Assembly (NCBI GenBank): GCA_004555175.1 | Contig: SFJE01000004.1 | Coordinates: 3,909 to 67,908, forward strand | Reading direction: 5' to 3' | Source of the DNA: Lentisphaeraceae bacterium | GTDB lineage: Bacteria > Verrucomicrobiota > Kiritimatiellia > RFP12 > DVOR01 | DNA length: 64,000 bases | Position numbers and translations under genes: made by a program | Shown here: positions 7,049 to 34,485 of the stretch, one piece after another | Layout: every line of letters begins with the position of its first letter | Numbering within the stretch: the first letter of the stretch is position 1 | The notes under the pieces: generated by a model | The model's input: only the letters and a program-made list of their open reading frames with translations | Told to the model about the DNA's origin: nothing | Databases searched by the model: none

Positions 7049-7064
7049 CTTAGGGGGTGGGGAA

Positions 7065-7775
7065 TTACTTGAGGACCTTGCCAAAGCGAGGAACGGCCAA
7101 GCGCTGGGCTTGGGTATACTGGCCATTCTGCGAGGCCACTTGGAGGTCGATGTAAAGGGTGTCGAGATCGGTGTTCCACTGGAAGGCGGTGGTGTCGGCG
7201 GGGGAGACGACGAGGGGGGAGGGGGCGAGCCAGCGCCGGGCAAGGGCGGAATCCTCCTCGGCCTCGGAGTAGGTGAGGCCATTGGTGCCGCTCAGGGAGA
7301 GCGTCTCGGGCGAACTGATGGAGCCGACCTTATGGAAGGTGACGCGCCCGGCAATGACTTGGTCAATGACAACGCTGCAAAGACCTTCATTCTCGCCGGG
7401 GGTGAGGCGGAAGAGGAGCTTATCGCGCAAGTTTCGCAGGGCCACGGAGAGCTCGGTATTGGCAATAATGCTCGCCACGGCTCGCTGGCAGGAGAGGGTC
7501 ACGCTAATCACTTGCCCGAGAATGAGCACGCCGAGGGCGGAGACCATCGTCACCTCCAGGAGGGTCATGCCGGCCCGGCGGGAGAACGGCTTGGGGGTAG
7601 CCCCCTCGGGGCGGGGGTTTATCGACAGGTCTGGGGAGTTATCGACAGGCCCGCGCCGCTTTACATTTTTGTCCGCCCCTACCTCGGGTCGAGGTAGGCC
7701 CTGTCTCGGGTCGAGGTAGGCCCTCCCTCGAGTTGAGGTAGGCGCGGGTGCTTTTTTTGTCTTCTGCGTGGACAT
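7065..7775 (-). CDS. prepilin-type N-terminal cleavage/methylation domain protein (pseudopilin); start uncertain, apparent 69-aa leader
   Basis: Contains FSRRAG/MTLLEVTMVSALGVLILG, i.e. a class III signal with G-M-T-L-L-E. The only in-frame ATG upstream of the Gly is at 7775. The ATG at 7568 would delete the leader. Codons 15-35 are encoded by the CCTACCTCG/CGAGGTAGG palindromic repeats. Confidence 0.6.
   Translation of the reverse strand: MSTQKTKKAPAPTSTRGRAYLDPRQGLPRPEVGADKNVKRRGPVDNSPDLSINPRPEGATPKPFSRRAGMTLLEVTMVSALGVLILGQVISVTLSCQRAVASIIANTELSVALRNLRDKLLFRLTPGENEGLCSVVIDQVIAGRVTFHKVGSISSPETLSLSGTNGLTYSEAEEDSALARRWLAPSPLVVSPADTTAFQWNTDLDTLYIDLQVASQNGQYTQAQRLAVPRFGKVLK
7677..7746. repeat. 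palindromic repeat cluster (CCTACCTCGGGTCGAGGTAGG x2 plus variant), member of CCTACCTCGAGGTAGG family
   Basis: Perfect 9-bp inverted repeats cctacctcg/cgaggtagg occur twice, plus ccctcgagttgaggtagg. The same motif family is at 24378-24457 and 63215-63385. Confidence 0.8.
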
Positions 7776-22212: not shown

Positions 22213-22236
22213 ACTATTGAACTCCTTGCGTTTCTA

Positions 22237-22252
22237 TGCAAACTTCGTGCCA
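22237..22252 (-). promoter_or_regulatory. sigma-54 (RpoN) promoter, -24/-12 elements TGGCACG-aagt-TTGCA, upstream of the 19702-22212 operon
   Basis: Reverse complement of 22231-22260 reads gcgcggtTTGGCACGAAGTTTGCAtagaaa, an exact match to consensus TGGCACG-N4-TTGCW. An AGGAG RBS and ATG at 22212 lie ~20 nt downstream. Confidence 0.8.
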
Positions 22253-22261
22253 AACCGCGCA

Positions 22262-22416
22262 CCTACGGTGCTTGGTTAGCGGACAGCCGACAGCGGACAG
22301 CTGACAGCGCTGGCGCTCGATGTGCAAAACCCGTCTGAGCCGTGAGCGCAACACGATAGGCCGGCGGTTTGTCCGTCGCGTTAGCGGCTGTCCGCTGTCG
22401 GCTGTCCGCTGTCCGC
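22262..22416. repeat. ~150-bp composite element: 4x CNGACAG heptamers, conserved core, 4x CTGTCNG heptamers (inverted); copy A
   Basis: Left arm cggacagccgacagcggacagctgacag (22280-22307). Right arm ctgtccgctgtcggctgtccgctgtccg (22388-22415). Core blocks cagcgctggcgctcga, cccgtctgagccgtga and tccgtcgcgttagcggctgtc are shared with copy B at 31861-32000. Confidence 0.8.
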
Positions 22417-23237
22417 TAGAGGTTAAAAAGGCTATCCTCAAAGCCGCCGTCGTCGGAGGGGGTGGCGGGGGGATCGGCGGTGGGCTCGAGGGCGTGGGCC
22501 ACCGCTTCGCTCAGCCCATCGATGGGGGCGATGGGGGAATCTTGCTCAAAGAGCGAGACAATCTCATCGGCGTGGTTGGCCGTCTTGCGATACTGCTCGG
22601 TGGCGTAGTGGCGCTTCTCGTTGAGCTTTTGGAGGAGATCGCGGATTTCGATGGCCGCCTCGTAGCACATCTCGGTCATCTCCTTGCGCCCGGCCTCGTC
22701 CACCAGATTTAGGCGCATCATCTCCACGCTACTCATCAGCACGGTCATCGGCTGACCAATCGCATGGCAGATGGTGCCAAAGCTCTCCATCATCACGCGC
22801 TGACGCTCCCGCTCGCGCTCCAGGCGCACATCCTGCCACATTGCCGCCGCATCGCGCAAGACAATGACCGCCCAGCGTGGCGGCTGCCCCTGCGCGCCCA
22901 TCTCTTTGGGGGTGGCATTGACTTCCAGCGTCACCTTGGGCTGGGTGAGCTCGGCGGGTTTGGGCGCCTGCCACAACTTCCCGGCGCGCAAGGCTTCCAT
23001 CATCGGCGCAATCCACGCCGGGTTTGGGAACCAGCGCGTGAGCGGCGCCCCCACCGGCAGGCCCCCCTCTGGCTGCGGAAAGAGTTCGCGCCAGACGCTA
23101 TTGGCGTAGAGCAATGGCCCCTCCGGGCTCGTTAATTCGATTACGCAGACGGCCACATTTGCGCGTTCAAGCCCCACATCGAGCATCTCATAGTAGGTTG
23201 CCGGCGGCTTGGGCCGGTCAAATCCAAAGGACATCAT
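22416..23237 (-). CDS. PAS-like + HisKA-like domain protein lacking an HATPase_c domain
   Basis: 273 aa. RERERQRVMMESFGTICHAIGQPMTVLMSSVEMMRL resembles a histidine-kinase H-box dimerisation domain. No N/G1/G2 ATP-binding boxes follow; the C-terminus is an acidic tail. Confidence 0.5.
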   Translation of the reverse strand: MMSFGFDRPKPPATYYEMLDVGLERANVAVCVIELTSPEGPLLYANSVWRELFPQPEGGLPVGAPLTRWFPNPAWIAPMMEALRAGKLWQAPKPAELTQPKVTLEVNATPKEMGAQGQPPRWAVIVLRDAAAMWQDVRLERERERQRVMMESFGTICHAIGQPMTVLMSSVEMMRLNLVDEAGRKEMTEMCYEAAIEIRDLLQKLNEKRHYATEQYRKTANHADEIVSLFEQDSPIAPIDGLSEAVAHALEPTADPPATPSDDGGFEDSLFNL

Positions 23238-23722
23238 ACCCCTTCCTCCTCGTCAACTTCAAGCCATACTTCGTCTAATGTTTCTTCTTCTTCTTCGGCG
23301 GCGGCTTCAGCCGCCTGCGCTTCGGCCAACTCCCGAGCCTGCTGCGCCTCCAACTGCCGGTAGAGTTCTAGGGCAACTGGCCGCTCTCGCGGTAAATCCC
23401 CTTGGTCACTTACCAGCGAGCAGGTTACCGGCCGCCCGGGGTCCCCGAGCGTATAGACCCCACCATTGGGGCATGGGGGCAATTGCCCCGCGTGCAAGAG
23501 CCGCGAGAGGGCATCGTCTCCAAACATCTCCGCCTGTCGCTTGGCCATCGAGAGCTCCCAGCGCTTCATCACGCACCGCTCCCGCGCCTCTTCCGTCCGA
23601 ATCCGGCCGGCCTGCTCCCAACTCCAATAGCCCCCCAACGCCCCCATCACCCCGATAAAAGAAAGCGGCAGCCACCAAGTCCGCGGCCAAATCTGCTGCG
23701 TCTGTGCTGCCGTTTCGGACAT
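23234..23722 (-). CDS. hypothetical small membrane-anchored protein with acidic C-terminus
   Basis: 162 aa with one N-terminal TM (WWLPLSFIGVMGALGGYW) and C-terminal EEEEETLDEVWLEVDEEEGV. Stop overlaps the downstream start (ATGA). Confidence 0.45.
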   Translation of the reverse strand: MSETAAQTQQIWPRTWWLPLSFIGVMGALGGYWSWEQAGRIRTEEARERCVMKRWELSMAKRQAEMFGDDALSRLLHAGQLPPCPNGGVYTLGDPGRPVTCSLVSDQGDLPRERPVALELYRQLEAQQARELAEAQAAEAAAEEEEETLDEVWLEVDEEEGV

Positions 23723-23737
23723 TGCTGCCCCTTCCGA

Positions 23738-23772
23738 AAGTTAAAAGGGCGACCTTCACGCGAAGGTCGCCC
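23738..23772 (-). terminator. rho-independent terminator downstream of the pilin gene
   Basis: Perfect 11-bp stem gggcgaccttc/gaaggtcgccc with 4-nt loop. On the minus strand it is followed by CTTTTAACTTT. Lies ~30 nt after the pilin stop. Confidence 0.75.
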
Positions 23773-23799
23773 CTTCCCAAAGGAGTTCAATCGGGAAGA

Positions 23800-24156
23800 T
23801 TAGTTGGTCGCATCTTCAGGGAGGACGTGGCCCTTCGGACATGAGGTCTTATAGCGGCCGGTGCCATCATCGGCTGGCATCGTATAGGAGCTGTTAGCGT
23901 CAGACGGGCATCTCATCTTGCTGATGGAGATCTTAAGATACTGATTCAGGTGGGTAGCGTCCACGGCTTCCCCATTAATCAAGCACTGCTCAGCAGCGGC
24001 TTCAATCTGCTTCATATTGGCAATGCAGGCGTTCTTCTGGGAGGTCTGCCTAGAGCGGACGAAGTTCGGGACGGCGATGGCGGCGAGGATGCCGATGATC
24101 GCGACCACGATCATAATTTCAACGAGCGTGAAGCCCTGCTTCAACTGCTTATTCAT
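23800..24156 (-). CDS. type IVa major pilin (PilA-like; prepilin with short leader and C-terminal disulfide loop)
   Basis: True start MNKQLKQ|GFTLVEIMIVVAIIGILAAIAVPNF is a classic class III signal with a 7-aa leader. Mature length ~111 aa. Two C-terminal Cys (CPSDANSSYTMPADDGTGRYKTSCP). The ORF in the track extends upstream to 24342 through out-of-context sequence. Confidence 0.85.
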   Translation of the reverse strand: MNKQLKQGFTLVEIMIVVAIIGILAAIAVPNFVRSRQTSQKNACIANMKQIEAAAEQCLINGEAVDATHLNQYLKISISKMRCPSDANSSYTMPADDGTGRYKTSCPKGHVLPEDATN

Positions 24157-24230
24157 TGTGCGAGTACCTTTCTGTACGGTAGCGTGACTATCGAACTGAC
24201 TTGGCACACGCCAAGCTGTCTTTCCTCCTT

Positions 24231-24246
24231 TGCAATGGGCGTGCCA
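24231..24246 (-). promoter_or_regulatory. sigma-54 promoter TGGCACG-ccca-TTGCA driving the pilin gene
   Basis: Reverse complement of 24226-24250 reads gatTTGGCACGCCCATTGCAaaggag. An AT-rich tract (24250-24350, candidate IHF bend) and palindromic repeats (24378-24457) lie upstream, as in enhancer-dependent promoters. Confidence 0.8.
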
Positions 24247-24377
24247 AATCAGGAAGGGCGGGAACTTTTTTGCGCTTCGCTCAAAAGCAGTCTCCCGATT
24301 TCTCATTCCTGTAAAGAGGTTTCTTAGTTTTAAGAATGGCAATTCTCGGGAATGAGAAAAATCCCTTCTCGAAATGG

Positions 24378-24457
24378 CCCAGGGCCTACCCCACCTCGAG
24401 GTAGGGCCTGGGTCACCTTGAGGTAGGGCCTACCCCGCCTCGAGGTAGGGCCTGGGG
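24378..24457. repeat. nested palindromes of the CCTACCTCGAGGTAGG family (candidate UAS / REP-like element)
   Basis: cccagggcctaccccacctcgaggtagggcctggg forms a ~16-bp stem. It is followed by ttgaggtagggcctaccccgcctcgaggtagggcctggg. Confidence 0.8.
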
Positions 24458-24464
24458 GAGGGGG

Positions 24465-24654
24465 GGAAGGGCGCGGCCATTGAAGTGGCCGGGGGTTTTG
24501 AGCCAGGCGCTCGCTTCGCTCGCTGCGCGGCAAATATGCCGCGCCACGGAACCGTTAACGGCAGGAGGAGGGCTGGCCTTTCGGTAAGGGGCTTCCGAGC
24601 CGGGCGGGCGGAGGCCAGGGCGCGGCCATTGGAGCGGCCGGGGGGCTTGAGCCA
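24465..24654. repeat. ~40-bp direct repeat pair (gggcgcggccattgRagYggccggggg..ttgagcca) in G-rich non-coding region
   Basis: Copies at 24465-24505 and 24615-24654 in an ~870-bp stretch with no credible ORF. Track ORFs there are P/R/A-rich frame artefacts. Confidence 0.6.
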
Positions 24655-25029
24655 CCGCGGCCAGGGGCAGGAGAACCGGCGGCACCCAGAGGGCCACCGG
24701 CGGGCCCAAGGCGACGGAAAGGTCCCGAAGCAGCCCCTGGGTCGCGGGGACGCGGCCCCTCAGAACGGGCAAAGCAAAAGGCCCCCCTGCGCCCCGCGCC
24801 GCCGAGCCGCGCTTGGGGCTTGGGGGCGGAGCCCCCAAACGGCCCTTGCTGGGAGGCGCGGCAGCGCATCCCTGCTGCGGAGGCAAGGCGTACCAGGGGG
24901 GTGAACGGTGAACAGAAAGCGGAGGTGCCCGCAGGGCGCCTCTGCCGGGGTGGAGCGCACTGCGCTCCCGAGGTGCAGGGCGAGGAGCCCTGCCTTGGGG
25001 TGCGGGGGCGAGTAGCCCCCGGGTGCCTT

Positions 25030-28000
25030 TCACGCGAGCAGGCAGCAAGCGATGGCGTGACCGAAGAGGATGGAGGTTTTGATGGGGATGAGCTTCCCGC
25101 GCAGGTGGGGGAAGTTATCGGCCCACGCGCCGAGGAGTTCCATCTGGAGCATGCCAGTGGCGGCTTCGGAGGAGCGAATCCGGAGGTCGGTGGGGGCGAA
25201 GCGGATGCCGGTGCCGAGGGCCTTGGAGATAGCCTCCTTGGCGCACCAGAAGCGGAGGATGGCGGTGGGTCCGTCGCCGCTCTTGGTAGCGAGCTCCTGC
25301 TCCTCGAGGGTGAAGACACCGCGGAGGAAGTCCTCGGTGAGGTCGCGATCGACCGATTCGACGTCGAGGCCGATATGGCCGTGGAGGACGCTTGCGCCGA
25401 GGATGAGGCCGGCGGTGTGGGCGATGGTGAGGTCGAGCGGGGCCGAGACCTGGCTCTGCCATTCGCCGACGGGGTGGGGCTTGCCGAGGGCATCCTTCCA
25501 GATAGCGATGTCGGCGGCCGGTTCGTAGAGGTTGAAGTTCTGGAGGAGGAGGCGGCGGACCGACTCCTTGGCGGCGGTTCGGCCGAGGAGCCATTCGAGG
25601 CGGCGGTGGGCGGTACCGCCCATCTGGGCGAAGTTCTCGCGCTCGTTGTGGGTGAGGACGGCGGCGGCGAGGGCCTTGAGCCAGAGCTCCTGGTTGGAGA
25701 CGAAGAAGTCGGGCGCGTCGTTGACGTAGAGGGCGCCGACGACCTCGGCGGTGGGGTCGGGTAAGAGGGTGGCAGGGAGAGGCTGGGTGATGAAGAACTT
25801 GGCCGGGTTCATCACGAAGTCGCGCAAGGCGCGTCCGGCGCGGCCGCTCATCTCCTCCCAGGCCTCGATGGCAAGGATGGGGTGACCGGCGGTGTCGGTG
25901 ACCTGGATGTCGACCTGGAAGGAACGTGGGGTGACGTTGACCAGGCGCAGAGCGCAGCGCAGGCGGGTGCCCTCGGGGACCCAGACGGCGTAGTAGCGGA
26001 TGGATTGGCAGCGGAAGGGGAGGGAGATGGCGCCGTGGAAGCGCTCGTGCGAACGCCAGAGGGGGAAGCCGGAGACCACCGCGTCGAGCAAGAGGGGCAT
26101 GGCGGTGAAGAGGGGGTTGCGGCTGGCGCGGACGGTGGCCGAGCGCGAGGGGATGCGCAGCTCGTAATCGAGGCCGTTGTAGCCCCAGCCCGAGACATGG
26201 CGGACGTTGCGCAGGAGGGGACCCTGGAAGAGGCGGCCGGGGTAGATTTCGCGCGCGTCCCAGTTCACCTGCTTGGGGGCGACGAGGGGCTGGAGTTCGC
26301 CTGCCTCCGGGGCCTCGGGCACGGCCGGGGCAAAGGTGAAGAGCGCCTCCATCACGGGGTGGACCGCTTCGCCCTCGCTTGCGTCGGTACTTAGGCGGAC
26401 GCGGAGGGTAGTCTGGCCTTCGAGCTCGGTGGGCGCGTCGTGGGAGAGGGCGACGCTGATACGCAGGTCGATTTGGCCAAAGTCGAAGGAGAGCCAACGC
26501 GGGGCGCGCAGGTGGGTGATGGCGCAGAGGACGGGGTTGCCCGAACGGCCGGAGGCCGAGGCGAGGAGGAGGCGCTGGGCGGCCTCGGCCATCACCTCCA
26601 GGCCGGTGGGCACGGAGAAGAGGGTCAGGCCGCGCATCTGCGGATCGCTGAGCGAGACGCCCGAGGTGCCGATGGCGTAGTCATTCAGGAAGGGGAAGTC
26701 CTCCAGACGCAGCGAGCAGCGCAGCTCCAGGCGCTCGGCGGTGCGCTCGAGCTCTTGGGCGGTGCGCAGGAGGGGGCCGACGAGGCCGGTGGCGGGGAAG
26801 TTGGAGGGCAGGGCGTGAGCGTGGGTGGCCTGGGTGGCCTCCTCGGCCAAGGCGTTCTCCATCCCGAGGATGCGGTGGGCATCGATGAGTTCGGGGCGGA
26901 TGGCCGGGAGCTCGCGGGTCAGGCGCAGGGTGAGGGTCTCGCTCTCGCCCTCGGCCAAGGGCGTATCGAAGTCCAGCCGCTGGGCGTGGGCGAAGAAGCG
27001 TAGGCCCGAGTAGTCAATCGGCACGCCGTGGGCAGCCAGGAGGCCGGCGGCTTGGCCCACCTGCACGCCACCCGAGCGGTGGAGGATGTGCATCGGGATG
27101 GTGGCAATCGGCTCCTCGCGGCCGGCCAAAATCTTGGCAATGAGCGGCGAGAGGAGGCCGCGGGCACCCACTTCTACAAAGAGGCGGCAGCCGCTCGCGT
27201 ACATTGCCTCGATCATTTGGCGGAAGTGGAGCGGCTCGGCCATTTGGTCGACGAGCGCGCTGACGACCGAGGAGGTGGAGTGACCCATCGGCTGGGCGGT
27301 CACGGCGGAGAAGAAGGTGACCTGCGGCTCGCAGGTGACATATTTGGAGAAGAAGCGCTCGAAGATTTGGCGCAGGCGGATGTCGCGCGCGCCGGTGTTG
27401 AAGGGGGCGAGGAGCGGTTCGGCCACGGAGAGGCCGCCGCCTTCGGCGATGGCGGCTTCCACGGTGGCCCGGTAATCGGGCGCCACGGCCAGGACGCAAT
27501 CGTCGGCGGTCAACTCCTGGGCCACCACCAGTTGCCCATTCGAGGTGGCGGCGAGCGCGCGCAGCTTCTCCACGGCAAAGCCCGAGACGGTCAGTTGCAG
27601 CCAAGGCGTGGCAGTTTCGGTGCCCAGGCGCAGGAGCATCTTGCCGGCATCGCGCAGAATCTGCACCAGGCGCAGCTTGGGATCGTGGTGCGTGGCGTGG
27701 AAGGCCGAGAAGGCGCCGAGCCCCACGCCGCCCACGGCCGCCGGTTGGACGCCTACGCCGCGGAGGAAGTCGGCAAAGACCTTACTGGCGAGGTAGGTGG
27801 AGGCGGAGGCGAGGAGGGGGAGGAAGTCGCGCGAGGCACTGAGGGGGAGGGTGTGCTCGGGGGCGGTGGAGAAGAGCCACTCGGAGGGGGAGGCCACATC
27901 GCAGAAGCCGGCGAAGGCCTCCTCCATATCGTCGAAGCGCTCGCGCACGCCATCGAAGGTAAGGGCTAGGTCGCGCATCATCTCCAGATGGAAGGAGCCG

Positions 28001-28338
28001 GTGCCCGGGAAGATGAAGGCCACCTTGCCGCCCTCGAGGGCCAGCGGACGCGTGGTAAAGAAGATGCCCGACTTATCGCGCAGCCGCGTGCGGCCACTAC
28101 GCAGCGCGTTGAGGGCCATCGTCAGCTTGCGCGCCATCTCCTCGAGCGAGGCCACCCACAGCCCCACCACGCACTGCTTGCCGCGCGCATCCCGGGTGGC
28201 GGTGTAGACCACATCTATCAGCCGCACCCCGCGGCTGCGTTCCAGGAAGGATTGCACGCGTAGGATTTCGGCCTCCAGGCCGCTGAGGTCGCCCGCGCCA
28301 ATCAGGCAGAGGACGCCTTCGGAGCGTTCCAGGCTCAT
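25030..28338 (-). CDS. type I PKS-like multidomain protein: KS-AT linker, acyltransferase-like, dehydratase-like, C-terminal Sfp-type 4'-phosphopantetheinyl transferase; several catalytic motifs appear substituted
   Basis: N-terminal post-KS linker, then FIFPGTGS (AT GQGSQ-like). The GHSxG position reads GVGLG. DH motif is GPLL...FPFLNDYAIGTSGV, i.e. HxxxG with Tyr in place of His. C-terminal PPTase motifs RRLEWLLGRTAAKES, IGLDVESV and FWCAKEAISKALGTG. No ACP DSL motif found. Confidence 0.65.
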   Translation of the reverse strand: MSLERSEGVLCLIGAGDLSGLEAEILRVQSFLERSRGVRLIDVVYTATRDARGKQCVVGLWVASLEEMARKLTMALNALRSGRTRLRDKSGIFFTTRPLALEGGKVAFIFPGTGSFHLEMMRDLALTFDGVRERFDDMEEAFAGFCDVASPSEWLFSTAPEHTLPLSASRDFLPLLASASTYLASKVFADFLRGVGVQPAAVGGVGLGAFSAFHATHHDPKLRLVQILRDAGKMLLRLGTETATPWLQLTVSGFAVEKLRALAATSNGQLVVAQELTADDCVLAVAPDYRATVEAAIAEGGGLSVAEPLLAPFNTGARDIRLRQIFERFFSKYVTCEPQVTFFSAVTAQPMGHSTSSVVSALVDQMAEPLHFRQMIEAMYASGCRLFVEVGARGLLSPLIAKILAGREEPIATIPMHILHRSGGVQVGQAAGLLAAHGVPIDYSGLRFFAHAQRLDFDTPLAEGESETLTLRLTRELPAIRPELIDAHRILGMENALAEEATQATHAHALPSNFPATGLVGPLLRTAQELERTAERLELRCSLRLEDFPFLNDYAIGTSGVSLSDPQMRGLTLFSVPTGLEVMAEAAQRLLLASASGRSGNPVLCAITHLRAPRWLSFDFGQIDLRISVALSHDAPTELEGQTTLRVRLSTDASEGEAVHPVMEALFTFAPAVPEAPEAGELQPLVAPKQVNWDAREIYPGRLFQGPLLRNVRHVSGWGYNGLDYELRIPSRSATVRASRNPLFTAMPLLLDAVVSGFPLWRSHERFHGAISLPFRCQSIRYYAVWVPEGTRLRCALRLVNVTPRSFQVDIQVTDTAGHPILAIEAWEEMSGRAGRALRDFVMNPAKFFITQPLPATLLPDPTAEVVGALYVNDAPDFFVSNQELWLKALAAAVLTHNERENFAQMGGTAHRRLEWLLGRTAAKESVRRLLLQNFNLYEPAADIAIWKDALGKPHPVGEWQSQVSAPLDLTIAHTAGLILGASVLHGHIGLDVESVDRDLTEDFLRGVFTLEEQELATKSGDGPTAILRFWCAKEAISKALGTGIRFAPTDLRIRSSEAATGMLQMELLGAWADNFPHLRGKLIPIKTSILFGHAIACCLLA

Positions 28339-29735
28339 CGGTCAACCTCCTCAAGCACGGCCGCGCCGGCGCGTCCTTTGGCCGAGAGGGTGGAGACGGC
28401 CAGGCGCCGGGGCCGCGTGGAGGAGGCGATCCACGGCCGCGCCTCCTGCACCCAGTAGTAGGCCTGCTCGGGTTCGCGCAGGCGGAAGCTCTCATCCACT
28501 GGGGTGACCGAGGGCGGCAGCACGCGGTGGCTGATGGCGAGGATGCCCTTGAGCAGTCCCAGAGCTCCGGCGGCGGTAAAGGTGTGGCCAAAGGAGGTCT
28601 TGGCCGAGCCGAGGGCTAGGAGGGGAATGTGCGCGCCGCGGTTGGCGGTCATCCGGTGCAAGATGGCCTCCTCGGCAGCATCTTCGGCGGGGATGCCCGA
28701 GCCATTCATCTCCCAGTAGTCGATGTCGCGGAAGGCGTTGGGGAGGCGGCGCAGGGCGCGATGGAGGGCGCGGCGGAGGCTTTCGGGGAGACCGCCTTCG
28801 GCCTCTGGGGCAATGCCAGAGATCTGCGCGCAGCCGTGGAGCTTGGCGTAGACATTGGGCGAACCATTCTTCTGGACTTCGGCCAGGCGCCGGAGGATAA
28901 AGGCTGCGCCCCCTTCGCCGGGCAGGGTGCCCACGGTGCTGAGGGTAAAGGGTTTGAGTTCGCGGCCGGGGCAGAAGGGCGTCAGGGCCGCTTCGCCGGC
29001 CAGTTGGGTCTGTGAGAGGGGCGGCTGCAGGGCCACCACGATGGCTACATCGCACTGATTGAGGCGCAGCGCGTTGGAGGCGGCCTCCAGGCAGGCGAAG
29101 ACTGAACTTTCGCCGGCGGCGCACTGGCAGGCGGTGTCGCACGCGCCAAAGGTTTGGGCCAGTTGGCGGACCACGCCTTCGCCGCGCGCGAGTTCCGGTT
29201 GGCGGCGCTTGAGCAGGGGCAAGGTGGCGGTGAGTTCGCCGCGCAGGGCGGCCATTTGCTCGTAGCTGGCGGTGGGGAAGAAGCGCTGGAGGGTGCCGAC
29301 AATCTGGCCGATGACATTCGCGTGCCAGAGCCAGTTGACGGCGGCGGGGTTAAAGCCGGCATCGTAGCCAACGAAGAGGGCCATGCGGTCGGAGTGGCTC
29401 TCGCCGGGGGGAATGCCGGCATCGATGAGGGCGTCGTCAATGAGCTGGGCGGCGAACCAGAAGTCCGTGTTGTCCCCCACGCCCAAATCTGGCGGCAGGG
29501 GCACGCGGTCGGCGCGGACGGCAAAGCGCTCGCCGAGCGCGGCGGAGACTTCGGGGAGGACGCAATCGGGGAAGAGTTCCTCGGCGGTGTGGCCATCGGG
29601 CGCTTCGGGCAGCGGGGTGAAGAAGCTTTGCTTGCGCAGGATTGCCTTCCAGAGAGCCCGCGGGGTGGGCGCACCGCCAAAGCAACCGCTCAGGCCAGTA
29701 AAGACAACGCTATCGGAGAGTGTGAGCATGGCCAA
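28335..29735 (-). CDS. beta-ketoacyl synthase (type I PKS-type KS domain) as separate ORF; first catalytic His apparently Asn
   Basis: N-terminal VVFTGLSGCFGGAPTPRALWKAIL. Active-site Cys in GACDTACQCAAGESS. EMNGSGIP aligns to EAHGTGT. Second His retained in SFGHTFTAAGA. Stop overlaps the downstream start (ATGA). Confidence 0.7.
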   Translation of the reverse strand: MAMLTLSDSVVFTGLSGCFGGAPTPRALWKAILRKQSFFTPLPEAPDGHTAEELFPDCVLPEVSAALGERFAVRADRVPLPPDLGVGDNTDFWFAAQLIDDALIDAGIPPGESHSDRMALFVGYDAGFNPAAVNWLWHANVIGQIVGTLQRFFPTASYEQMAALRGELTATLPLLKRRQPELARGEGVVRQLAQTFGACDTACQCAAGESSVFACLEAASNALRLNQCDVAIVVALQPPLSQTQLAGEAALTPFCPGRELKPFTLSTVGTLPGEGGAAFILRRLAEVQKNGSPNVYAKLHGCAQISGIAPEAEGGLPESLRRALHRALRRLPNAFRDIDYWEMNGSGIPAEDAAEEAILHRMTANRGAHIPLLALGSAKTSFGHTFTAAGALGLLKGILAISHRVLPPSVTPVDESFRLREPEQAYYWVQEARPWIASSTRPRRLAVSTLSAKGRAGAAVLEEVDR

Positions 29736-29757
29736 GTGTGCGGCAGCGGGGGCGGGC

Positions 29758-30186
29758 TTAGGTGAAGTATTGCAGGCCCTCGGCCAGGACGCGCAGGAGC
29801 CGATCGAGCCGCGCGCAGGAGAGCTCTTCCACCGGGAACTTGCCCTCCAGCATCAGGTCGCCCTCGTTGGTGATTTCCTTATAGACCACTGCGCAACCGG
29901 TCAACCACTCGCCCAGGCGCAGTAGCCCGTAGGCCTCTTCGAGGTTCTGGGGCGGGCGGAGCCAGAGCTTGGCCGAAAGCGCCACCACCGCCCCGCCCTG
30001 CGAGATCTCCGGATTATCGATGAGTTCAAGCAGGCTCTCGCGCAAGACCGGATGGGTGAAGGCCCAAACAGCATAGCCTGGGGTCTTGGTTACTTCCACA
30101 AAGCCTGGCGCGCGGTCGTGCAACCACGCTTCAGCCACCGGAATCTCCTTTGCAAAGTCACAAGAGGGTTTCGCGTTCTGTTTCAT
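29758..30186 (-). CDS. hypothetical protein (142 aa) upstream of KS gene
   Basis: Clean ORF with non-repetitive composition, but no recognisable motif. Confidence 0.4.
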   Translation of the reverse strand: MKQNAKPSCDFAKEIPVAEAWLHDRAPGFVEVTKTPGYAVWAFTHPVLRESLLELIDNPEISQGGAVVALSAKLWLRPPQNLEEAYGLLRLGEWLTGCAVVYKEITNEGDLMLEGKFPVEELSCARLDRLLRVLAEGLQYFT

Positions 30187-30306
30187 ACAGCAGGAATGTT
30201 AGCACGCTTGCAGGCGCTTGGCAAGCGGGGGAGAGGGGGAGAGAGCTGCTAGCTGTTAGCCATTAGCTGTTAGCTCGCTAACCGCTAGCCGCTAACGGCT
30301 AACCGC

Positions 30307-30966
30307 TTATTGACGCGCGAGGAGCGCGTCAAGATTTCCCACGCCCAGGCGCTCGCAGCCCATGGCCAGATAGGCTTCGGCATCGGCGCGGGTGCGGATG
30401 CCGCCGGAGGCCTTGACCTTGATCTTGCCCTTGGCGGCCTTGAGCATTGTCTGGACGGCCTCGGGGGTGGCGCCGTGGGCGGCGAAGCCGGTGGAGGTTT
30501 TGACGAAGGCGGCCCCGGCCTTGATGGCGCAGGCAACGCCCTTGCGGATTTCGGCGGGGGTGAGCAGGCAGGTTTCGAGGATGACCTTGACGGGGTGGGG
30601 CCAGACGGCGGTCACAACGGCGTGAATTTCGTCGGTGATGCCTTCGGTGTCGCCATCCTTGAGGGCGGAGACGTTGATGACCATGTCAATCTCCTCGGCG
30701 CCGTGGGCGATGGCGAGTTGGGCTTCCATCGCCTTGAGGGTGCCGAGGGTGTTGCCATGCGGGAAGCCAACTACGGCCGCGACGATGGTCTCGCTCTCGC
30801 GCAGGCATTCGGCGGCGAAGCGGACGTCGCAGCTCTTGACGCAGAGGCAGCCCACGCCGAGTTCGCGGCAGCGCTCGGCCGCTTCGTGGAGTTGCTCCAT
30901 CGAGGCTTCGGGCTTGAGGATGGCGTAATCGAGGGTCTTGAGGAGGGCTTTATCGGTCATCTTCAA
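30307..30966 (-). CDS. deoC: deoxyribose-phosphate aldolase
   Basis: Class I aldolase motifs VVGFPHGN, FVKTSTGF and KASGGIRT. ~219 aa. Confidence 0.85.
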   Translation of the reverse strand: MKMTDKALLKTLDYAILKPEASMEQLHEAAERCRELGVGCLCVKSCDVRFAAECLRESETIVAAVVGFPHGNTLGTLKAMEAQLAIAHGAEEIDMVINVSALKDGDTEGITDEIHAVVTAVWPHPVKVILETCLLTPAEIRKGVACAIKAGAAFVKTSTGFAAHGATPEAVQTMLKAAKGKIKVKASGGIRTRADAEAYLAMGCERLGVGNLDALLARQ

Positions 30967-30967
30967 C

Positions 30968-31837
30968 TCACTTCTTTTGGAGGCACTGGAAACGGCAGGT
31001 GAGGGTGTGGCTTTCGCCGGGGGCGAGGGTAATCTGGCCGCCGGTGTGGTGCGGGTTGGCCGGCTCCACGCAGACGAAGTGGCGCGGAGCTTCTAGGGGC
31101 AAATCGCCAAAGGCGTGGTCCAGCGGCGGGTGCCAGACCACGACGGCCGCCGCCTCATCGGCCGCCACCGCCACGGTGCGCTCAAGGATGGGGTCCTCCA
31201 GCGCGGCCAGGACGTCGGGCTGCGGGAAGACGGTGTCGATGCCCGTTTCGTCGGAGAAGGTGATGAGGCGATTGTCGATGCCCTGTAGCCGCGCTTGGCG
31301 GGCATCGCCCAGGCGCAGATAGGCGTGGAGCGCCTCGCCGAAGGTGAAGGGCACCTCGCCGCGGTTGCGGGTCTGCAGGTCGAGCGTCAGGCAGTCGCCC
31401 AGGGTGATGGTCAGGCGCAGTCGATAGGGGAAGGGGAAGGCTGGGTCGGTGGCCTCGGCATCGGTCAGCTCCAAGGTCAGCGCGGTTTCGTTGGCGCTAT
31501 ACTCGCTCTCGACCGGGTGCCAGAGGGCGCGGCGGGCGAAGCCGTGGGCGGGCGAACCGGGCGGGTAGCCCGCCGGCGCGGCGCCAAACCACGGCCAGCA
31601 GATGGGAATGCCGCCGCGGATGGCCTTCCCGGCCGAGAAGTCTGCCAGGGGGCTCAGGTAGAGCGCGTCGCGGTGCCCGAGGGGGCGGTAGGAGAGCACC
31701 TGGCCGCCGTGGAGGGCTACTTCGCAGACGGCCTTCGGGGCCACCAAGGCAACAATCGCGCCCTCGCCGGGACCCTCCCGGAAGGCGATCCGCCCGGCTG
31801 CACCAAAGCGGCGATTGAGATCTAGAATATCGTTCAT
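30968..31837 (-). CDS. D-hexose-6-phosphate mutarotase (aldose 1-epimerase family, YeaD-like)
   Basis: GGIPICWPWFG motif and overall ~290 aa size typical of the glucose-6-phosphate 1-epimerase family. Confidence 0.7.
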   Translation of the reverse strand: MNDILDLNRRFGAAGRIAFREGPGEGAIVALVAPKAVCEVALHGGQVLSYRPLGHRDALYLSPLADFSAGKAIRGGIPICWPWFGAAPAGYPPGSPAHGFARRALWHPVESEYSANETALTLELTDAEATDPAFPFPYRLRLTITLGDCLTLDLQTRNRGEVPFTFGEALHAYLRLGDARQARLQGIDNRLITFSDETGIDTVFPQPDVLAALEDPILERTVAVAADEAAAVVVWHPPLDHAFGDLPLEAPRHFVCVEPANPHHTGGQITLAPGESHTLTCRFQCLQKK

Positions 31838-32261: not shown

Positions 32262-34196
32262 TTAGACCTCGAAGTAGGTATAGCCGCGCAGGCCGTTGGC
32301 GTAGGCGGCGAGGATGCGCCGGCGTTCGACGGGGGTGATGCGCTTGGCCTTCATCGCGCTATCAGTCAGCCGGCGGAAGCGGGAGACGAGCTCGGACGTG
32401 TTGTATTCCACATAGGAGAGGACCTCCTCGACGGTGTCGCCCTCCACCTCATCGGTGAACTCAATGTCGCCATCTTCGTCCAGGCGGATGGAGACGATGT
32501 TGGTGTCGCCAAAGAGGTTATGGAGGTCGCCCAAGGTCTCCTGATAGGCGCCAACGAGGAAGGCGCCGAGGATGTACTCTTCGCCCTCGCGGAGCTCGTG
32601 GAGGGGGAGGGCGTGCTTGACGTCGTGCAGGTCGATGAACTTATCAATCTGCCCATCGCAATCGCAGGTGATGTCGGAGAGGTGCGCGCTGCGGGTTGGC
32701 TTTTCGCAGAGGCGGTGGATGGGCATAATCGGGAAGAGCTGGTCGATGGCCCACGCGTCGGGCAGGGATTGGAAGACCGAGAAGTTGCAGTAGTAAATGT
32801 CGGCCATCGCCTCGTCCAGCCCCAGGAGGTCTTCAGGCACATACTTGAGCTTGGGCACCTCGGCGCGGATGCGGGTGAGGATCGACCAGAAGAGGCGGTC
32901 GGCAGCCGCGTGCTGGCGCAGGGTGATGAGGCCTTGCTTGAAGGCCTTTTGCACCTCTTCGCGGTAGTAGAGCGCGTCGTTGAAGTATTCGGGAAGGTTT
33001 TTGGTGCGCAGGTTCTTGGCCACATCGAGCAGGTTGACGATGCACTCGGGGGCGTTTGGTTCGGCCAGGATCGGGTCGATGGCCGTCTCGTTGACCTCAA
33101 AGGTCGCCGTGCCTAGGACGTCCATCAGCAGCACCGAGTAGTAGCCAATGAGCGCGCGGCCTGATTCGCTGATAATGGTGGGGTGGGGGACGTTGGCGTG
33201 GTCGCAGGCGAGCATAATGCCCTCGACCACGTCGGCGCAATATTCGGAGATGTCGTAGTTCGCCGAGGATTCGAAGTTGGTGTGGCTGCCATCGTAGTCA
33301 ATGGCCAGGCCCCCGCCAATATCAAAGATGCCCATCGGCGCGCCCTCTTTCACCAGCCCCACATAGAAGCGCGAGGCCTCCTTAATCGTATCGCGGATTT
33401 CGCGGATGTTGGGCACCTGCGAGCCGAGGTGATAGTGGAGCATCTCCAGGCAGTCGAGCCGCCCGGCCGCCTTGAGCTTGTCCACCGCTAGAATCAACTG
33501 GCTCGCGGTCAATCCAAAAACCGAGCGATCCCCCCCGCTCTCGCTCCACTTGCCGCCCACCTTACTGCTAAGCTTGACGCGCACGCCAATGCGCGGCTTG
33601 ACCTTCAGCTCATCGGCCACCGCCAGCACAATGTCCAGCTCCTCGAGCGATTCGAGCACTAGCATCGTCTGCAAGCCCATCTTGAGCGAGGAGAGCGCCA
33701 GGCGCGCAAACTCTTCATCCTTATAGCCATTGCAGACAATGTAGGCCTCCGGATCGTGCATATACGCCAGCGCCGCAATGAGTTCGGCCTTCGACCCGGC
33801 CTCCAGTCCGTGGTGGTAGGCCCGGCCAAAGGTGACCACATCCTGCACCGCCTGCTGTTGCTGGTTGACCTTGATGGGGTAGACGCCCCGATAGACGCCG
33901 CGATACTTGTAATCGGCAATCGCCTTGCCAAAGGCTTCGTTGATGACCTTGATGCGAGAAGCAAGAATGTCGCTAAAGCGCAGGAGCACCGGCAGGCTCA
34001 TCCCCCGTTCATAGAGTTCGGTCACAATCCGCTCAATCGGCACATCCACCGGCTTGCCGCTCTTCTGCAGCCGAACCGTCACCTTGCCCTCCGGCGACAC
34101 GCTAAAATAACCGTGCCCCCAAGCATCCACACCATACAGCTCGGCACTCTTGACTGCATTCCAGCCATTCAAAGCATCCGTCACGCCTTTTGCCAT
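32262..34196 (-). CDS. speA: biosynthetic arginine decarboxylase
   Basis: Start MAKGVTDALNGWNAVKSAELYGVDAWGHGYF at 34196 follows a GGAG RBS; the upstream 158 aa of the track ORF are out of context. PLP-dependent Orn/Arg decarboxylase fold with the SpeA-specific N-terminus, ~644 aa. Confidence 0.85.
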   Translation of the reverse strand: MAKGVTDALNGWNAVKSAELYGVDAWGHGYFSVSPEGKVTVRLQKSGKPVDVPIERIVTELYERGMSLPVLLRFSDILASRIKVINEAFGKAIADYKYRGVYRGVYPIKVNQQQQAVQDVVTFGRAYHHGLEAGSKAELIAALAYMHDPEAYIVCNGYKDEEFARLALSSLKMGLQTMLVLESLEELDIVLAVADELKVKPRIGVRVKLSSKVGGKWSESGGDRSVFGLTASQLILAVDKLKAAGRLDCLEMLHYHLGSQVPNIREIRDTIKEASRFYVGLVKEGAPMGIFDIGGGLAIDYDGSHTNFESSANYDISEYCADVVEGIMLACDHANVPHPTIISESGRALIGYYSVLLMDVLGTATFEVNETAIDPILAEPNAPECIVNLLDVAKNLRTKNLPEYFNDALYYREEVQKAFKQGLITLRQHAAADRLFWSILTRIRAEVPKLKYVPEDLLGLDEAMADIYYCNFSVFQSLPDAWAIDQLFPIMPIHRLCEKPTRSAHLSDITCDCDGQIDKFIDLHDVKHALPLHELREGEEYILGAFLVGAYQETLGDLHNLFGDTNIVSIRLDEDGDIEFTDEVEGDTVEEVLSYVEYNTSELVSRFRRLTDSAMKAKRITPVERRRILAAYANGLRGYTYFEV

Positions 34197-34297
34197 GCTC
34201 ACTCTCCGTTCTCTGCAATTCACCCCCGCACGGGGACTTGCACCAAAGTATAGCACACTCTGTTGTCTGTCGCTGAGAGAGAAGAGGACGGATGACG

Positions 34298-34382
34298 GAA
34301 GATCCGGAAGCTCCGGAAAGCCCGGAAGCTCCGGAAAATCCGGGAAATCCCGGAAAGCCCGGAAAACCCGGGAAAGCCCGGC
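34298..34382. repeat. tandem repeat, ~9 units of CCGGAAA(G/A)C-like 9-11-mers, in the divergent speA / C10-peptidase intergenic region
   Basis: atccggaagctccggaaagcccggaagctccggaaaatccgggaaatcccggaaagcccggaaaacccgggaaagcccgg. A related tccggaatctccgggaatctccggatgatccgg occurs at 63181-63213. Confidence 0.8.
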
Positions 34383-34485
34383 GCCTCCACCCGCTGCCCC
34401 AAGCCTCTCCGTTGCGGCACGTGCGCTGTCCGCGCGCTTTTTGCTACGCTGTGTCCACTTGAAATCTTGCACGGAAGGGTGAGAC

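Follow-up and report, generated by a model that had tools for sequence, protein, structure and literature searches.

What does a polyketide synthase (PKS)-like gene pair do once its catalytic residues appear to be gone? The question was raised by two ORFs in the 64-kb stretch of DNA from a gut Kiritimatiellia bacterium analysed here (the window). A first-pass annotation, made by eye, had read them as a split type I PKS-like module in which every alignable catalytic residue except the ketosynthase (KS) cysteine was substituted and from which the ACP was missing. We confirmed that both ORFs are real and that they lie on the minus strand in the order proposed, a KS-like ORF followed by a linker-AT-DH-PPTase ORF. 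ORF A (28335..29729) encodes a 464-aa ketosynthase-fold pseudoenzyme, here called KS0, an assignment based on Pfam, AF2, Foldseek, hhalign, a homolog census and dN/dS. It more likely starts at the ATG at 29729 than at the TTG at 29735, and the 464-aa length matches that of its homologs. ORF B (25030-28338) encodes 1102 aa. The sequence reads ATGA at 28335..28338 on the minus strand, so that the TGA that ends KS0 shares bases with the ATG that starts ORF B, and a GAGGAGG Shine-Dalgarno sequence lies ~8 nt upstream; together, these features indicate that KS0 and ORF B are translationally coupled. The two genes likewise adjoin or overlap in five homologous loci (L001, L003, L005, L007 and L008). 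In the window, the pair has as neighbours genes for a pseudopilin, a Laminin_G protein, DeoC, an aldose epimerase and SpeA.

The domain identities are well beyond chance, with Pfam matches in both ORFs, and the AF2 models are confident (pLDDT 89 for KS0 and 83 for ORF B). Structural searches with Foldseek matched KS0 to type I PKS KS domains and ORF B to KS-AT-DH structures. The best NCBIfam match of both ORFs is the PfaA subfamily TIGR02813, well under the family cut-off.

KS0 has the thiolase-type KS fold (pLDDT 89, pTM 0.91). Pfam ketoacyl-synt models matched its N- and C-terminal parts (5e-16 and 1e-18), and Foldseek aligned it to PKS KS domains at E 1e-28 to 1e-29 (TMq 0.74-0.81, TM 0.78), with a KSQ domain (7uwr) as the top structural match. 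Of the Cys-His-His triad, only the second His is kept (His382). The first His is Asn342 (codon 28704-28706, minus strand), where EMNGSGI aligns to EAHGTGT. The cysteine had been reported as intact in the motif DTACQ. This reading did not survive: DTAC (residues 198-201) is a look-alike, and its Cys201 (29127-29129, minus strand) lies six residues upstream of the true nucleophile position, which is occupied by Glu207 (29109-29111, minus strand). When the family was compared with 24 intact KS domains, hhalign paired Glu207 without gaps with the Cys of DAACASS (probability 100%, E 9e-92), and MAFFT gave the same register. In the AF2 model, residues 200-202 form a strand and a helix begins at 206, the usual nucleophile elbow. 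Because the hhalign register and this strand-helix elbow agree, we place Glu207, not Cys201, at the nucleophile position.

Similar losses run through the homologs. Cys occurs in none of 69 KS homologs at the nucleophile column, which holds 12 different residues (M, E, A, I, L, V and others), and the look-alike Cys201 is kept in 11 of the 69. The His1 column reads Asp in 42, Asn in 16 and His in 9. Glu340 and Gly381 are invariant across the 69 homologs, the active-site Lys377 is retained in the window and in 68/69, and His382 in the window and in 60/69. Lys377 and His382, both overlooked in the earlier reading, could support residual ligand binding.

ORF B begins with a KS-AT linker subdomain (residues 1-100; 28039..28338, minus strand), assigned from AF2, alignment and its dN/dS of 0.045. 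AF2 predicts an alpha/beta subdomain at residues 9-95, residues 1-100 align to the post-KS linker of P0054, P0057 and P0059, and the homolog P0050 has a CurL-like_PKS_C match in this region. In intact PKSs, the KS-AT linker packs against the KS. The following acyltransferase fold, AT0 (residues 101-445; 27004..28038, minus strand), was detected solely by NCBIfam PfaA/fabD models and by alignments to FabD and PKS AT domains, including PDB FabD structures; Foldseek superposed it on AT domains with a TMt of about 0.8. AT0 lacks both the Ser of GHSxG and the downstream His of an active AT. GHSxG is replaced by G204-V-G-L-G208 (27715-27729, minus strand), where GGVGLGA aligns to GHSxGE and the His-Ser pair becomes Val205-Gly206, and the catalytic His is Asn314 (27397-27399, minus strand), where APFNT aligns to AYHT/APFHS. 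Among 74 ORF B homologs, the pre-nucleophile His is present in 2 and the Ser in 12 (absent in 62), the His-Ser pair is kept in 2, and Asn occupies the catalytic His position in 70. A few P0050-like lineages retain an apparently intact AT (GHSIG plus His), and thus the family is not uniformly dead.

The dehydratase region, DH0 (residues 526-870; 25729..26763, minus strand), was assigned by Pfam, AF2 and alignment. AF2 predicts a double hotdog at residues 528-830, and Pfam PS-DH matches the second hotdog (1.5e-7). The fold is present without the His of HxxxGxxxxP that an active DH combines with the Asp of DxxxQ/H: FLNDYAIG aligns to FLRDHTLG, which puts Tyr554 (26677-26679, minus strand) at the catalytic His. 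This column has His in 0/74 homologs (F in 37, Y in 28). The Asp is present in the window (Asp752), in a column that varies across homologs (D 26, E 24, Q 9, A 8). Alignment upheld the hand-read losses of the KS His, of the AT Ser and His and of the DH His, and moved the register only at the KS Cys. The claim that everything except the KS Cys was substituted needs amending twice, since that Cys is lost as well and the second KS His is kept.

AT0 and DH0 are separated by an interdomain linker of 80 residues (446-525; 26764..27003, minus strand), mostly without confident structure (pLDDT <50 at residues 463-504). When aligned, P0053, P0054 and P0058 have their ACPs in a gap immediately N-terminal to the DH; some relatives carry their ACP at the C-terminal end of this linker, and the window protein has none there. 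As the first-pass annotation had stated, the pair has no ACP: Pfam gave no PP-binding match at E<=0.1 in either ORF, nor any KR match, and no ACP motif was found in the whole 64-kb window. No discrete ACP follows the pair either, as 24343-25029, downstream of ORF B, is non-coding, and the same absence was observed in L001-L008.

ORF B ends in an Sfp-type PPTase of the WxxKEAxxK subtype (residues 871-1102; 25030..25728, minus strand), supported by Pfam, the census and dN/dS. Pfam ACPS matches residues 989-1065 (1.3e-14), and AF2 models residues 866-1101 as repeated alpha/beta halves with mostly high pLDDT, in keeping with a ~230-aa domain of the ACPS superfamily. Its motifs, earlier read as complete, are so: GKPH (952-955), IAHT (972-975), GLDVE (990-994; 25357-25365, minus strand) with D992 and E994, and WCAKEAISK (1031-1039; 25222-25248, minus strand). 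All 16 positions checked, including the metal-binding and catalytic motifs, are identical in 74/74 homologs (among them K953, P954, H974, T975, G990, D992, E994, W1031, K1034, E1035 and K1039). Across lineages, identity is highest in this domain (45-53%, versus 29-39% in the others). From these motifs, we predict that the PPTase is active.

Every domain of the pair, the dead ones included, is under strong purifying selection. Measured against a 94%-identical ortholog at unsaturated dS (0.22-0.42), dN/dS was 0.06 for KS0, 0.045 for the linker, 0.10 for AT0, 0.215 for DH0 and 0.014, the lowest value, for the PPTase. Over the 69-74 distinct homologs, the catalytic residues of KS, AT and DH have been lost and their columns vary; the PPTase positions checked are invariant. 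The ORFs are full length at 71/73 loci for the KS and 76/87 for ORF B, the remainder being cut by contig ends, and no frameshifts or truncations were seen in 70+ species. At least 218 species genomes carry the pair; most are labelled Kiritimatiellia, Lentisphaerae or Verrucomicrobia, and most are gut and rumen MAGs. In five of five inspected neighbourhoods, KS0 and ORF B are adjacent, and the flanks differ and are mostly housekeeping. These five contain no ACP, KR or TE, with a single SDR gene upstream in L003 as the one exception, and no PKS cluster surrounds the pair in the neighbourhoods examined.

Where does such a pair come from? Matches to P0053-P0059 fall at E 1e-50 to 1e-111, and profile search, census and alignment show that the window pair shares full length and domain order with the P0059/P0062/P0147 clade. 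Degeneracy is confined to the ~16 closest among the best 150 of 3640 cluster representatives. Those ranking next (P0142-P0152) are split and ACP-less, with intact GHSxG, YHT and DHTxG. In the two of these that were checked (P0147 and P0150), a discrete ACP of 98-99 aa follows, and a discrete 84-99-aa ACP lies directly downstream in the relatives checked at L088-L091. Upstream of the fused relatives (L088 and L089) lies an ER-KS-AT-KR-DH megasynthase, in PUFA-synthase-like clusters. Among named families, the active relatives match PfaA best, not PKSE. The window pair departs from this clade in two features, having neither a neighbouring ACP or megasynthase nor intact KS, AT and DH residues. As the nearest active relatives share the ACP-less layout, the lack of an ACP is ancestral to the branch and not a product of degeneration.

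Because the KS, AT and DH residues are lost and the PPTase alone is intact, the sequence evidence indicates that the pair is a conserved pseudo-enzyme scaffold around one intact, predicted active PPTase, and not a natural-product pathway. We somewhat favour a trans-acting PPTase on a non-catalytic PKS-derived scaffold, with the fatty-acid ACP as its likeliest client. Here we infer complex formation, PPTase activity, a scaffold role and, most tentatively, the identity of the client. Our model suggests that the ancestor was an iterative PUFA-synthase-like PKS subunit (KS / AT-DH-PPTase) working with a separate small ACP. In Kiritimatiellia and in related lineages labelled Lentisphaerae or Verrucomicrobia, the neighbourhood would have lost both the partner megasynthase and the dedicated ACP, and other residues would have taken the place of the KS nucleophile, of the Ser and His of the AT and of the DH His, while the Sfp-type PPTase was fully kept. 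With these replacements, condensation, acyl transfer and dehydration would no longer be possible. The two genes would produce a stoichiometric complex of a KS0 subunit and a linker-AT0-DH0-PPTase subunit, probably a KS-mediated dimer like other type I PKSs. Using CoA and Mg2+, the protein would convert one or more apo-carrier proteins to the holo form in trans, and the dead PKS domains would be under selection as a structural or carrier-protein-docking scaffold. If the client is the type II fatty-acid-synthase ACP, the pair may be a housekeeping PPTase that replaces or supplements AcpS. A bolder version, which we consider speculative, is that AcpS is absent from Kiritimatiellia and from their relatives labelled Lentisphaerae, and that this ~1,570-residue, two-subunit pseudo-PKS is their sole, essential PPTase, its dead KS, AT and DH domains, all once ACP-binding modules, acting as a docking platform for apo-AcpP. 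If true, a whole megasynthase module would have become, phylum-wide, a pseudoenzyme chaperone that serves the one catalytic domain left.

Other readings have to be weighed against this scaffold model. The pair could be an accessory PPTase whose client is a specialised carrier elsewhere in the genome, from a remnant secondary-lipid, PKS or NRPS pathway, with AcpS serving fatty-acid synthesis. The ancestors were indeed dedicated to a pathway-specific discrete ACP, and Sfp-type W/KEA PPTases are typically linked to secondary metabolism (PMC6042109), but we found no carrier protein near the pair in about 90 loci or in the 64-kb window; the changing housekeeping flanks and the spread over at least 218 species, represented mainly by gut and rumen MAGs, argue for a core function, and we regard this reading as unlikely, though credible. 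More doubtful is that the dead KS, AT and DH have gained a new non-catalytic job, such as gating the PPTase in response to lipid status, sensed by binding acyl-ACP, malonyl-CoA or CoA, or acting on the fatty-acid-synthesis machinery; the scaffold would then matter in its own right instead of being carried along. The ~1,300 scaffold residues are a heavy cost, as PPTases elsewhere work as ~230-aa proteins, and a second, so far unrecognised function may therefore account for the selection on the dead domains. A dN/dS of 0.05-0.2 over these residues, the retention of KS Lys377, Glu340, Gly381 and His382, and the fact that all three parent domains naturally bind ACP are consistent with such a job. 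However, the columns that once formed the active sites vary and often hold hydrophobic residues (M/I/L/V/A at the Cys, F/Y at the DH His), a pattern more in line with pocket filling than with a conserved new ligand site, and no new invariant polar cluster was identified.

Two further explanations are very improbable. A working, unconventional PKS/FAS-like condensing enzyme that makes a lipid with non-canonical residues and the cell's AcpP would agree with the intact folds, the retained KS His2 and Lys, and the AT Ser and His kept in a minority of homologs. It is close to refuted by the KS elbow, where no nucleophile is conserved, by the absence of the AT Ser in 62/74 and of the DH His in 74/74 homologs, and by the lack of KR, ER, TE or ACP partners nearby. 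A decaying relic with drifting dead domains and no function beyond, at most, the PPTase would explain why the catalytic residues of three domains are all gone and why their columns vary freely; yet each dead domain has a dN/dS far below 1, 29-39% identity is kept across deep lineages, and AF2 confidence is high. For the domains as a whole, decay to a relic or pseudogene is refuted by the low dN/dS and the full-length, conserved ORFs. Of the relic and the neofunctionalised scaffold originally offered as options, the evidence thus favours the scaffold with an active PPTase.

The closest known systems are uncharacterised bacterial type I PKSs with an integrated PPTase (here P0059, P0062 and P0142-P0152), which have the same linker, AT, DH and PPTase and a homologous KS in the same order; the closest active members (P0142-P0152) also share the KS / AT-DH-PPTase split without an internal ACP. 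They keep Cys-His-His, GHSxG plus His, the DH His and DxxxQ, none of which is complete in the window pair, and the fused ones stand beside a megasynthase and the checked ones beside a discrete ACP and tailoring genes, whereas the pair has neither. SAV_7361 and SACE_2343 are cited in the literature (PMC6042109) as type I PKSs that carry such an Sfp-type PPTase at the C terminus, and may belong to this clade. Enediyne PKSs, named in the first-pass annotation as a precedent for a fused C-terminal PPTase, are a poorer match than these ACP-less KS / AT-DH-PPTase relatives. Enediyne PKSs (PKSE: SgcE, CalE8, DynE8) have the layout KS-AT-ACP-KR-DH-PPTase. They resemble the pair as iterative type I PKSs with a C-terminal Sfp-type PPTase after the DH, but are single polypeptides with an internal ACP and KR, active residues and a PPTase that self-activates in cis, whereas in the pair ACP and KR are absent, the KS is split off, and the KS, AT and DH domains are dead. 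The enediyne cassette (thioesterase and E3/E4/E5 genes) is absent beside the window pair.

PUFA or "secondary lipid" synthases (PfaA-E) offer several parallels. TIGR02813 (PfaA) is the best NCBIfam match of both the window ORFs and the active relatives, although all scores, at 74-80 bits, fall well short of the cut-off of 1010. PfaB has a KS-like plus AT layout, and its structure (9ry8) is among the PDB matches of the window proteins. The megasynthase neighbouring the relatives has a FabK/PfaD-like ER, as in PUFA synthases, and a PfaC-PPTase fusion is known in Pseudoalteromonas sp. DS-12 (PMC3098273). Unlike these synthases, the pair has no tandem ACPs, CLF, FabA-type DH pair or pfa operon.

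Nucleophile-less KS folds kept for structural or other roles are also found in the KS0 of trans-AT PKSs, in KSQ and in the chain-length factor. For ORF B, the best structural match is CalA3 (7wvz), an ACP-less KS-AT-DH-KR release module. In all of those cases a single domain is altered within an assembly line that still works, and KSQ, CLF and CalA3 retain a defined chemistry; the window pair is a stand-alone, conserved unit without an assembly line, and all its biosynthetic domains are dead. PcpS of Pseudomonas aeruginosa and the cyanobacterial Sfp-type PPTases are sole or broad-spectrum enzymes. Although free-standing ~230-aa proteins, they are a precedent for an Sfp-type enzyme in primary metabolism. 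The PPT domain integrated in the fungal FAS alpha subunit (PMC6042109), although AcpS-type and part of an active FAS, is in turn a precedent for a PPTase embedded in a megasynthase.

The two genes lie on the minus strand. ORF A, the ketosynthase (KS)-like gene, spans 28335-29735 when read from a TTG, while the gene call for its counterpart in L007, a syntenic Spyradenecus locus, corresponds to an ATG at 29729. Because its homologs measure 462-464 aa and the L007 call starts at this ATG, a 464-aa product is likely. ORF B (25030-28338; 1102 aa) encodes a linker, an acyltransferase (AT) region, a dehydratase (DH) region and an Sfp-type phosphopantetheinyl transferase (PPTase). The stop codon of ORF A overlaps the start codon of ORF B in the sequence ATGA, with GAGGAGG about 8 nt upstream, an arrangement that represents classic translational coupling. 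The GC3 of the pair (0.83-0.89) is similar to that of the adjoining genes.

ORF A matched the N- and C-terminal Pfam ketoacyl-synt models (5e-16 and 1e-18, respectively), and its AF2 model (pLDDT 89, pTM 0.91) resembles the KS domains of type I PKSs (TMq 0.74-0.81). ORF B matched PS-DH (1.5e-7) and ACPS (1.3e-14); its AT region is too diverged for a Pfam match and was recognized by the NCBIfam PfaA and fabD models and by PDB FabD and PKS-AT sequences. In the AF2 model of ORF B (pLDDT 83), a subdomain formed by the KS-AT linker (residues 9-95) is followed by the AT fold (105-440), a segment lacking confident structure (463-504), the double hotdog of the DH (528-830) and, last, the PPTase (866-1101). 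Its best PDB matches were KS-AT-DH modules (CalA3, MAS, DEBS) and isolated AT domains. No stop-to-stop ORF in 87 loci was matched by both queries, so that throughout this sample KS and ORF B are separate genes.

We then compared the catalytic residues of the pair with HMMER alignments to solved structures and with an alignment to intact relatives. The four substitutions read by eye in the first-pass annotation were upheld by both. In the KS, the canonical EAHGTGT reads EMNGSGI, placing Asn342 at the first His. In the AT, GHSxGE reads GVGLGA, where Val205-Gly206 replace His-Ser, and AYHT reads APFNT, with Asn314 in place of the His. In the DH, FLRDHTLG reads FLNDYAIG, so that the His becomes Tyr554. 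A PS-DH match at residues 706-825 first suggested that this last motif (551-557) had been misplaced, an idea that was rejected: the placement stands because the current PS-DH model describes the second hotdog, and in the relative P0053 a PKS_DH_N domain precedes PS-DH.

The same annotation had taken the Cys of DTACQ for the KS nucleophile and the lone catalytic survivor outside the PPTase, which proved to be an alignment artefact. Comparison by hhalign of 69 family members with 24 intact KS sequences (probability 100%, E 9e-92) ran gap-free over residues 158-237, setting DTAC (198-201) opposite G-A-N-Y and Glu207 opposite the Cys of DAACASS; MAFFT gave the same register. In the AF2 model of ORF A, residues 200-202 form a strand and a helix begins at 206, which is the strand-turn-helix of a nucleophile elbow, and Cys201 is kept in only 24 of 47 close and 11 of 69 broader homologs. 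Pairing DTAC with DTAC, as in HMMER pairwise alignments to PDB KS sequences, needs a gap of 2 to 6 residues, and was overruled by the gap-free profile-profile alignment, the family conservation and the secondary structure of the model. Thus, a perfect-looking motif can arise by chance at a six-residue offset. The second KS His (His382) and Lys377 are retained. Given the substitutions and Glu207 at the Cys column, KS, AT and DH each lack essential residues; we refer to these folds as KS0, AT0 and DH0.

This loss extends across the family. Identity to the full-length ORF B homologs, which carry the names Candidatus Spyradenecus sp., Kiritimatiellia or Lentisphaerae, falls from 94% to 33%, and the distribution of KS homologs runs in parallel. 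When GTDB species genomes were scanned, relatives were found in at least 218 of them; among the best 80, labels were nearly all Kiritimatiellae/-ia, 'Lentisphaeraceae' or 'Verrucomicrobia', with many rumen and gut MAGs. Residues were tallied in 69 KS and 74 ORF B homologs, all distinct. The KS Cys was present in none of the 69 (M 15, E 14, A 10, I 9, L 6, others), and the first His was mostly replaced (D 42, N 16, H 9). The second His (H 60, N 9) and the Lys (68 of 69) were kept. In the AT, the His of GHSxG survived in 2 of 74 homologs and the Ser in 12, and the catalytic His was Asn in 70 and His in 2. The DH His was absent from all 74 (F 37, Y 28), and the DH Asp column was mixed (D 26, E 24, Q 9, A 8). 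Sixteen PPTase positions were identical in all 74: R912, E915, W916, R920, K924, K953, P954, H974, T975, G990, D992, E994, W1031, K1034, E1035 and K1039.

Next, we estimated dN/dS against the 94% identical ortholog in L007, where synonymous sites are unsaturated (dS 0.22-0.42); the distant loci L001, L003, L005 and L008 were left out, their synonymous sites being saturated. The PPTase was the most constrained (0.014), followed by the linker (0.045), KS0 (0.06), AT0 (0.10), the interdomain stretch (0.12) and DH0 (0.215). Across the deepest split (L003, L005), PPTase identity was 45-53%, against 29-39% for the other domains. KS0, AT0 and DH0 are thus constrained, but less than the PPTase, and the low dN/dS together with the retained identity indicates that the dead domains are not drifting. 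The initial proposal had been a degenerate relic or a scaffold carrying an active PPTase; these results favor the scaffold and argue against the relic.

The module had also been described as lacking an ACP, and this was borne out. No PP-binding domain was found in ORF A or ORF B (Pfam, E<=0.1), a regular-expression search in six frames of the 64-kb window found no ACP Ser motif, and in the relatives P0053, P0054 and P0058 the ACP falls in an alignment gap directly before the DH. Neither E. coli AcpP nor the discrete ACPs from L088 and L089, two loci of active relatives, gave a phmmer match in 0.94 Mb comprising the window and the loci. In the same 0.94 Mb, E. coli and B. subtilis AcpS sequences matched only the fused PPTase, a result that covers far less than whole genomes and is little guide to whether AcpS is absent.

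On one side of the pair is a type II secretion (T2SS)/type IV pilus-like cluster, and on the other are sugar and polyamine genes (DeoC, aldose epimerase, arginine decarboxylase). Flanks differ elsewhere: purD, purE, glnS, mnmE and heme genes in L001/L002, and different again in L003, L005 and L008. The pair alone is conserved across the compared loci, and no ACP, TE or megasynthase was found near it in these or in the window. The large secretion cluster (1782-24342), downstream on the same strand, encodes T2SSF, two T2SSE ATPases, an MshEN-domain protein, a secretin, an N_methyl pseudopilin and a Laminin_G_3 protein, with a sigma-54 response regulator and a hybrid histidine kinase in the same region; rpoN lies at 47317-48792. 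Between the ORF B end and the pseudopilin gene is a non-coding gap (24343-25029; ~690-875 nt) with three 32-nt palindrome-bearing repeats 22 nt apart (24381-24456) and a 56-nt direct repeat (24450-24505 and 24599-24654, 80% identical). Its small ORFs yield only Pro/Arg-rich junk translations, and Rfam gave no match over 22000-31000 at E<=0.1. L007 has a comparable gene-free gap of ~930 nt (6730-7657).

Directly upstream of the KS gene, a 142-aa ORF (29758-30186, minus strand) without a Pfam match or ACP-type Ser motif has a 143-aa counterpart in L007 (1572-2003) and is not beside the pair in remoter genomes. The arginine decarboxylase ORF (32262-34670, minus strand; 802 aa from TTG) overlaps a divergent C10-peptidase/TSP3-repeat ORF (34486-36690, plus strand) by ~185 nt, and its Pfam domains begin near residue 260; the true start of SpeA probably lies farther downstream than called. 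The window carries two large cysteine-peptidase genes, this C10 gene and a C25 gene (49460-52249). Eight loci with a Kiritimatiellia-type pair (L021, L027, L039, L063, L071, L078, L084, L086) are on contigs labelled Akkermansia, Barnesiella, Anaerovoracaceae, Clostridiales, Clostridium, Lachnospira or Azospirillum, probably through MAG binning or taxonomy errors.

A profile search of 1.84 billion cluster representatives returned 3640 matches at E<=1e-30. Within the best 150, degeneracy is confined to the ~16 closest (about 1090-1115 aa) and is partial in some: P0136 keeps GHSGG, and P0137, P0138, P0140, P0141 and P0144 keep the AT His. The others keep GHSxG, xYHT and LLDAAGQ, as well as xDHTxG where the DH motif aligns reliably. 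This holds both for KS-fused proteins (1550-1990 aa) and for split ones (1100-1350 aa), whether or not they contain an ACP. A split layout that lacks an ACP is already found in the closest active sisters (P0142-P0152). In the two whose loci we looked up, P0147 (L090) and P0150 (L091), a KS fragment with EAH(A/G)TG and GSVKSMIGH precedes the gene and a 98-99 aa ACP-like ORF (...DLDFQSTDVVEL...) follows it. The next ORF in L090 resembles, by eye, the phosphodiesterase-family gene following the ACP in L088. The fused P0059 (L088) and the Streptomyces P0062 (L089) lie directly 3' of a 2400-2700 aa ER(NMO)-KS-AT-KR-DH megasynthase, with an 84-99 aa ACP and a hydrolase directly 3' and, in L088, glycosyltransferases.

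The best named-family match of these active relatives is PfaA, which makes the suggested analogy to enediyne PKSEs, which also carry a C-terminal integrated Sfp-type PPTase, a weak link for the window pair. From the architecture and neighbors of the relatives, the ancestor was thus a PUFA-synthase-like (resembling PfaA-E) iterative PKS subunit with a trans ACP. The absence of an internal ACP is older than the degeneration; what the Kiritimatiellia lineage lost was the partner genes and the catalytic residues. The result is an unusually clean natural series, from active fused KS-AT-ACP-DH-PPTase, through active split ACP-less forms with a discrete ACP and partly degenerate forms, to a fully dead scaffold with an intact PPTase.

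The active relatives themselves form a recurrent, apparently uncharacterized cluster (L088 1899-24779, L089 2806-17537, L090, L091) of the ER-KS-AT-KR-DH megasynthase, KS-AT-DH-PPTase, 84-99 aa ACP, phosphodiesterase-family protein, alpha/beta hydrolase and SDR, with several glycosyltransferases in L088 and a methyltransferase in L089. It looks like a PUFA-synthase-like secondary (glyco)lipid pathway. A deep-branching member, P0050 (L003 7745-13300), from a freshwater metagenome MAG labelled Lentisphaerae, has an apparently intact AT (GHSIG and the His in PGHT) and has lost the DH His (RDCSLG), with an SDR/KR-family gene immediately upstream of the KS gene. P0050 may stand partway along the degeneration, or its acyltransferase may retain some function.

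The pair is therefore a coupled two-gene unit, outside any cluster, in which KS, AT and DH are dead, the PPTase is intact and every domain is under purifying selection. It almost certainly makes no polyketide. We hypothesize that the two proteins come together in the manner of a KS-AT didomain; outside the PPTase, constraint is strongest on the linker subdomain, the part that packs on the KS. The complex, probably dimerizing through KS0, would be a PPTase that acts in trans on free-standing carrier proteins. Its scaffold may be kept for stability or oligomerization, or since the KS, AT and DH surfaces still dock ACP. With moderate confidence, we propose the FAS II ACP as the most economical client, on account of the wide, apparently core distribution and the housekeeping neighborhoods.

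In hundreds of Kiritimatiellia MAGs from gut and rumen, genome mining will report a type I PKS or PUFA-like cluster at this locus; the NCBI label, '4'-phosphopantetheinyl transferase superfamily protein', is nearer the truth. If the PPTase is the housekeeping enzyme, the pair would be an unusual way for a poorly cultured phylum to carry out an essential step in its lipid metabolism and, potentially, a lineage-specific target.

C-terminal integrated Sfp-type PPTases are known, uncharacterized, in bacterial type I PKSs such as SAV_7361 and SACE_2343 (PMC6042109), and one PfaC-PPTase fusion has been reported (PMC3098273). Our literature search found no description of a pseudo-PKS/PPTase family or of a whole-module, conserved pseudoenzyme scaffold around a live PPTase that forms a stand-alone pair of core genes in a lineage of phylum rank. 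The pair preserves three consecutive megasynthase domains under purifying selection after the loss of catalysis. Single dead domains (KS0, KSQ, CLF) are frequent in working assembly lines. In those systems one dead domain serves within a working assembly line, whereas in the window pair the whole module is dead around an intact PPTase.
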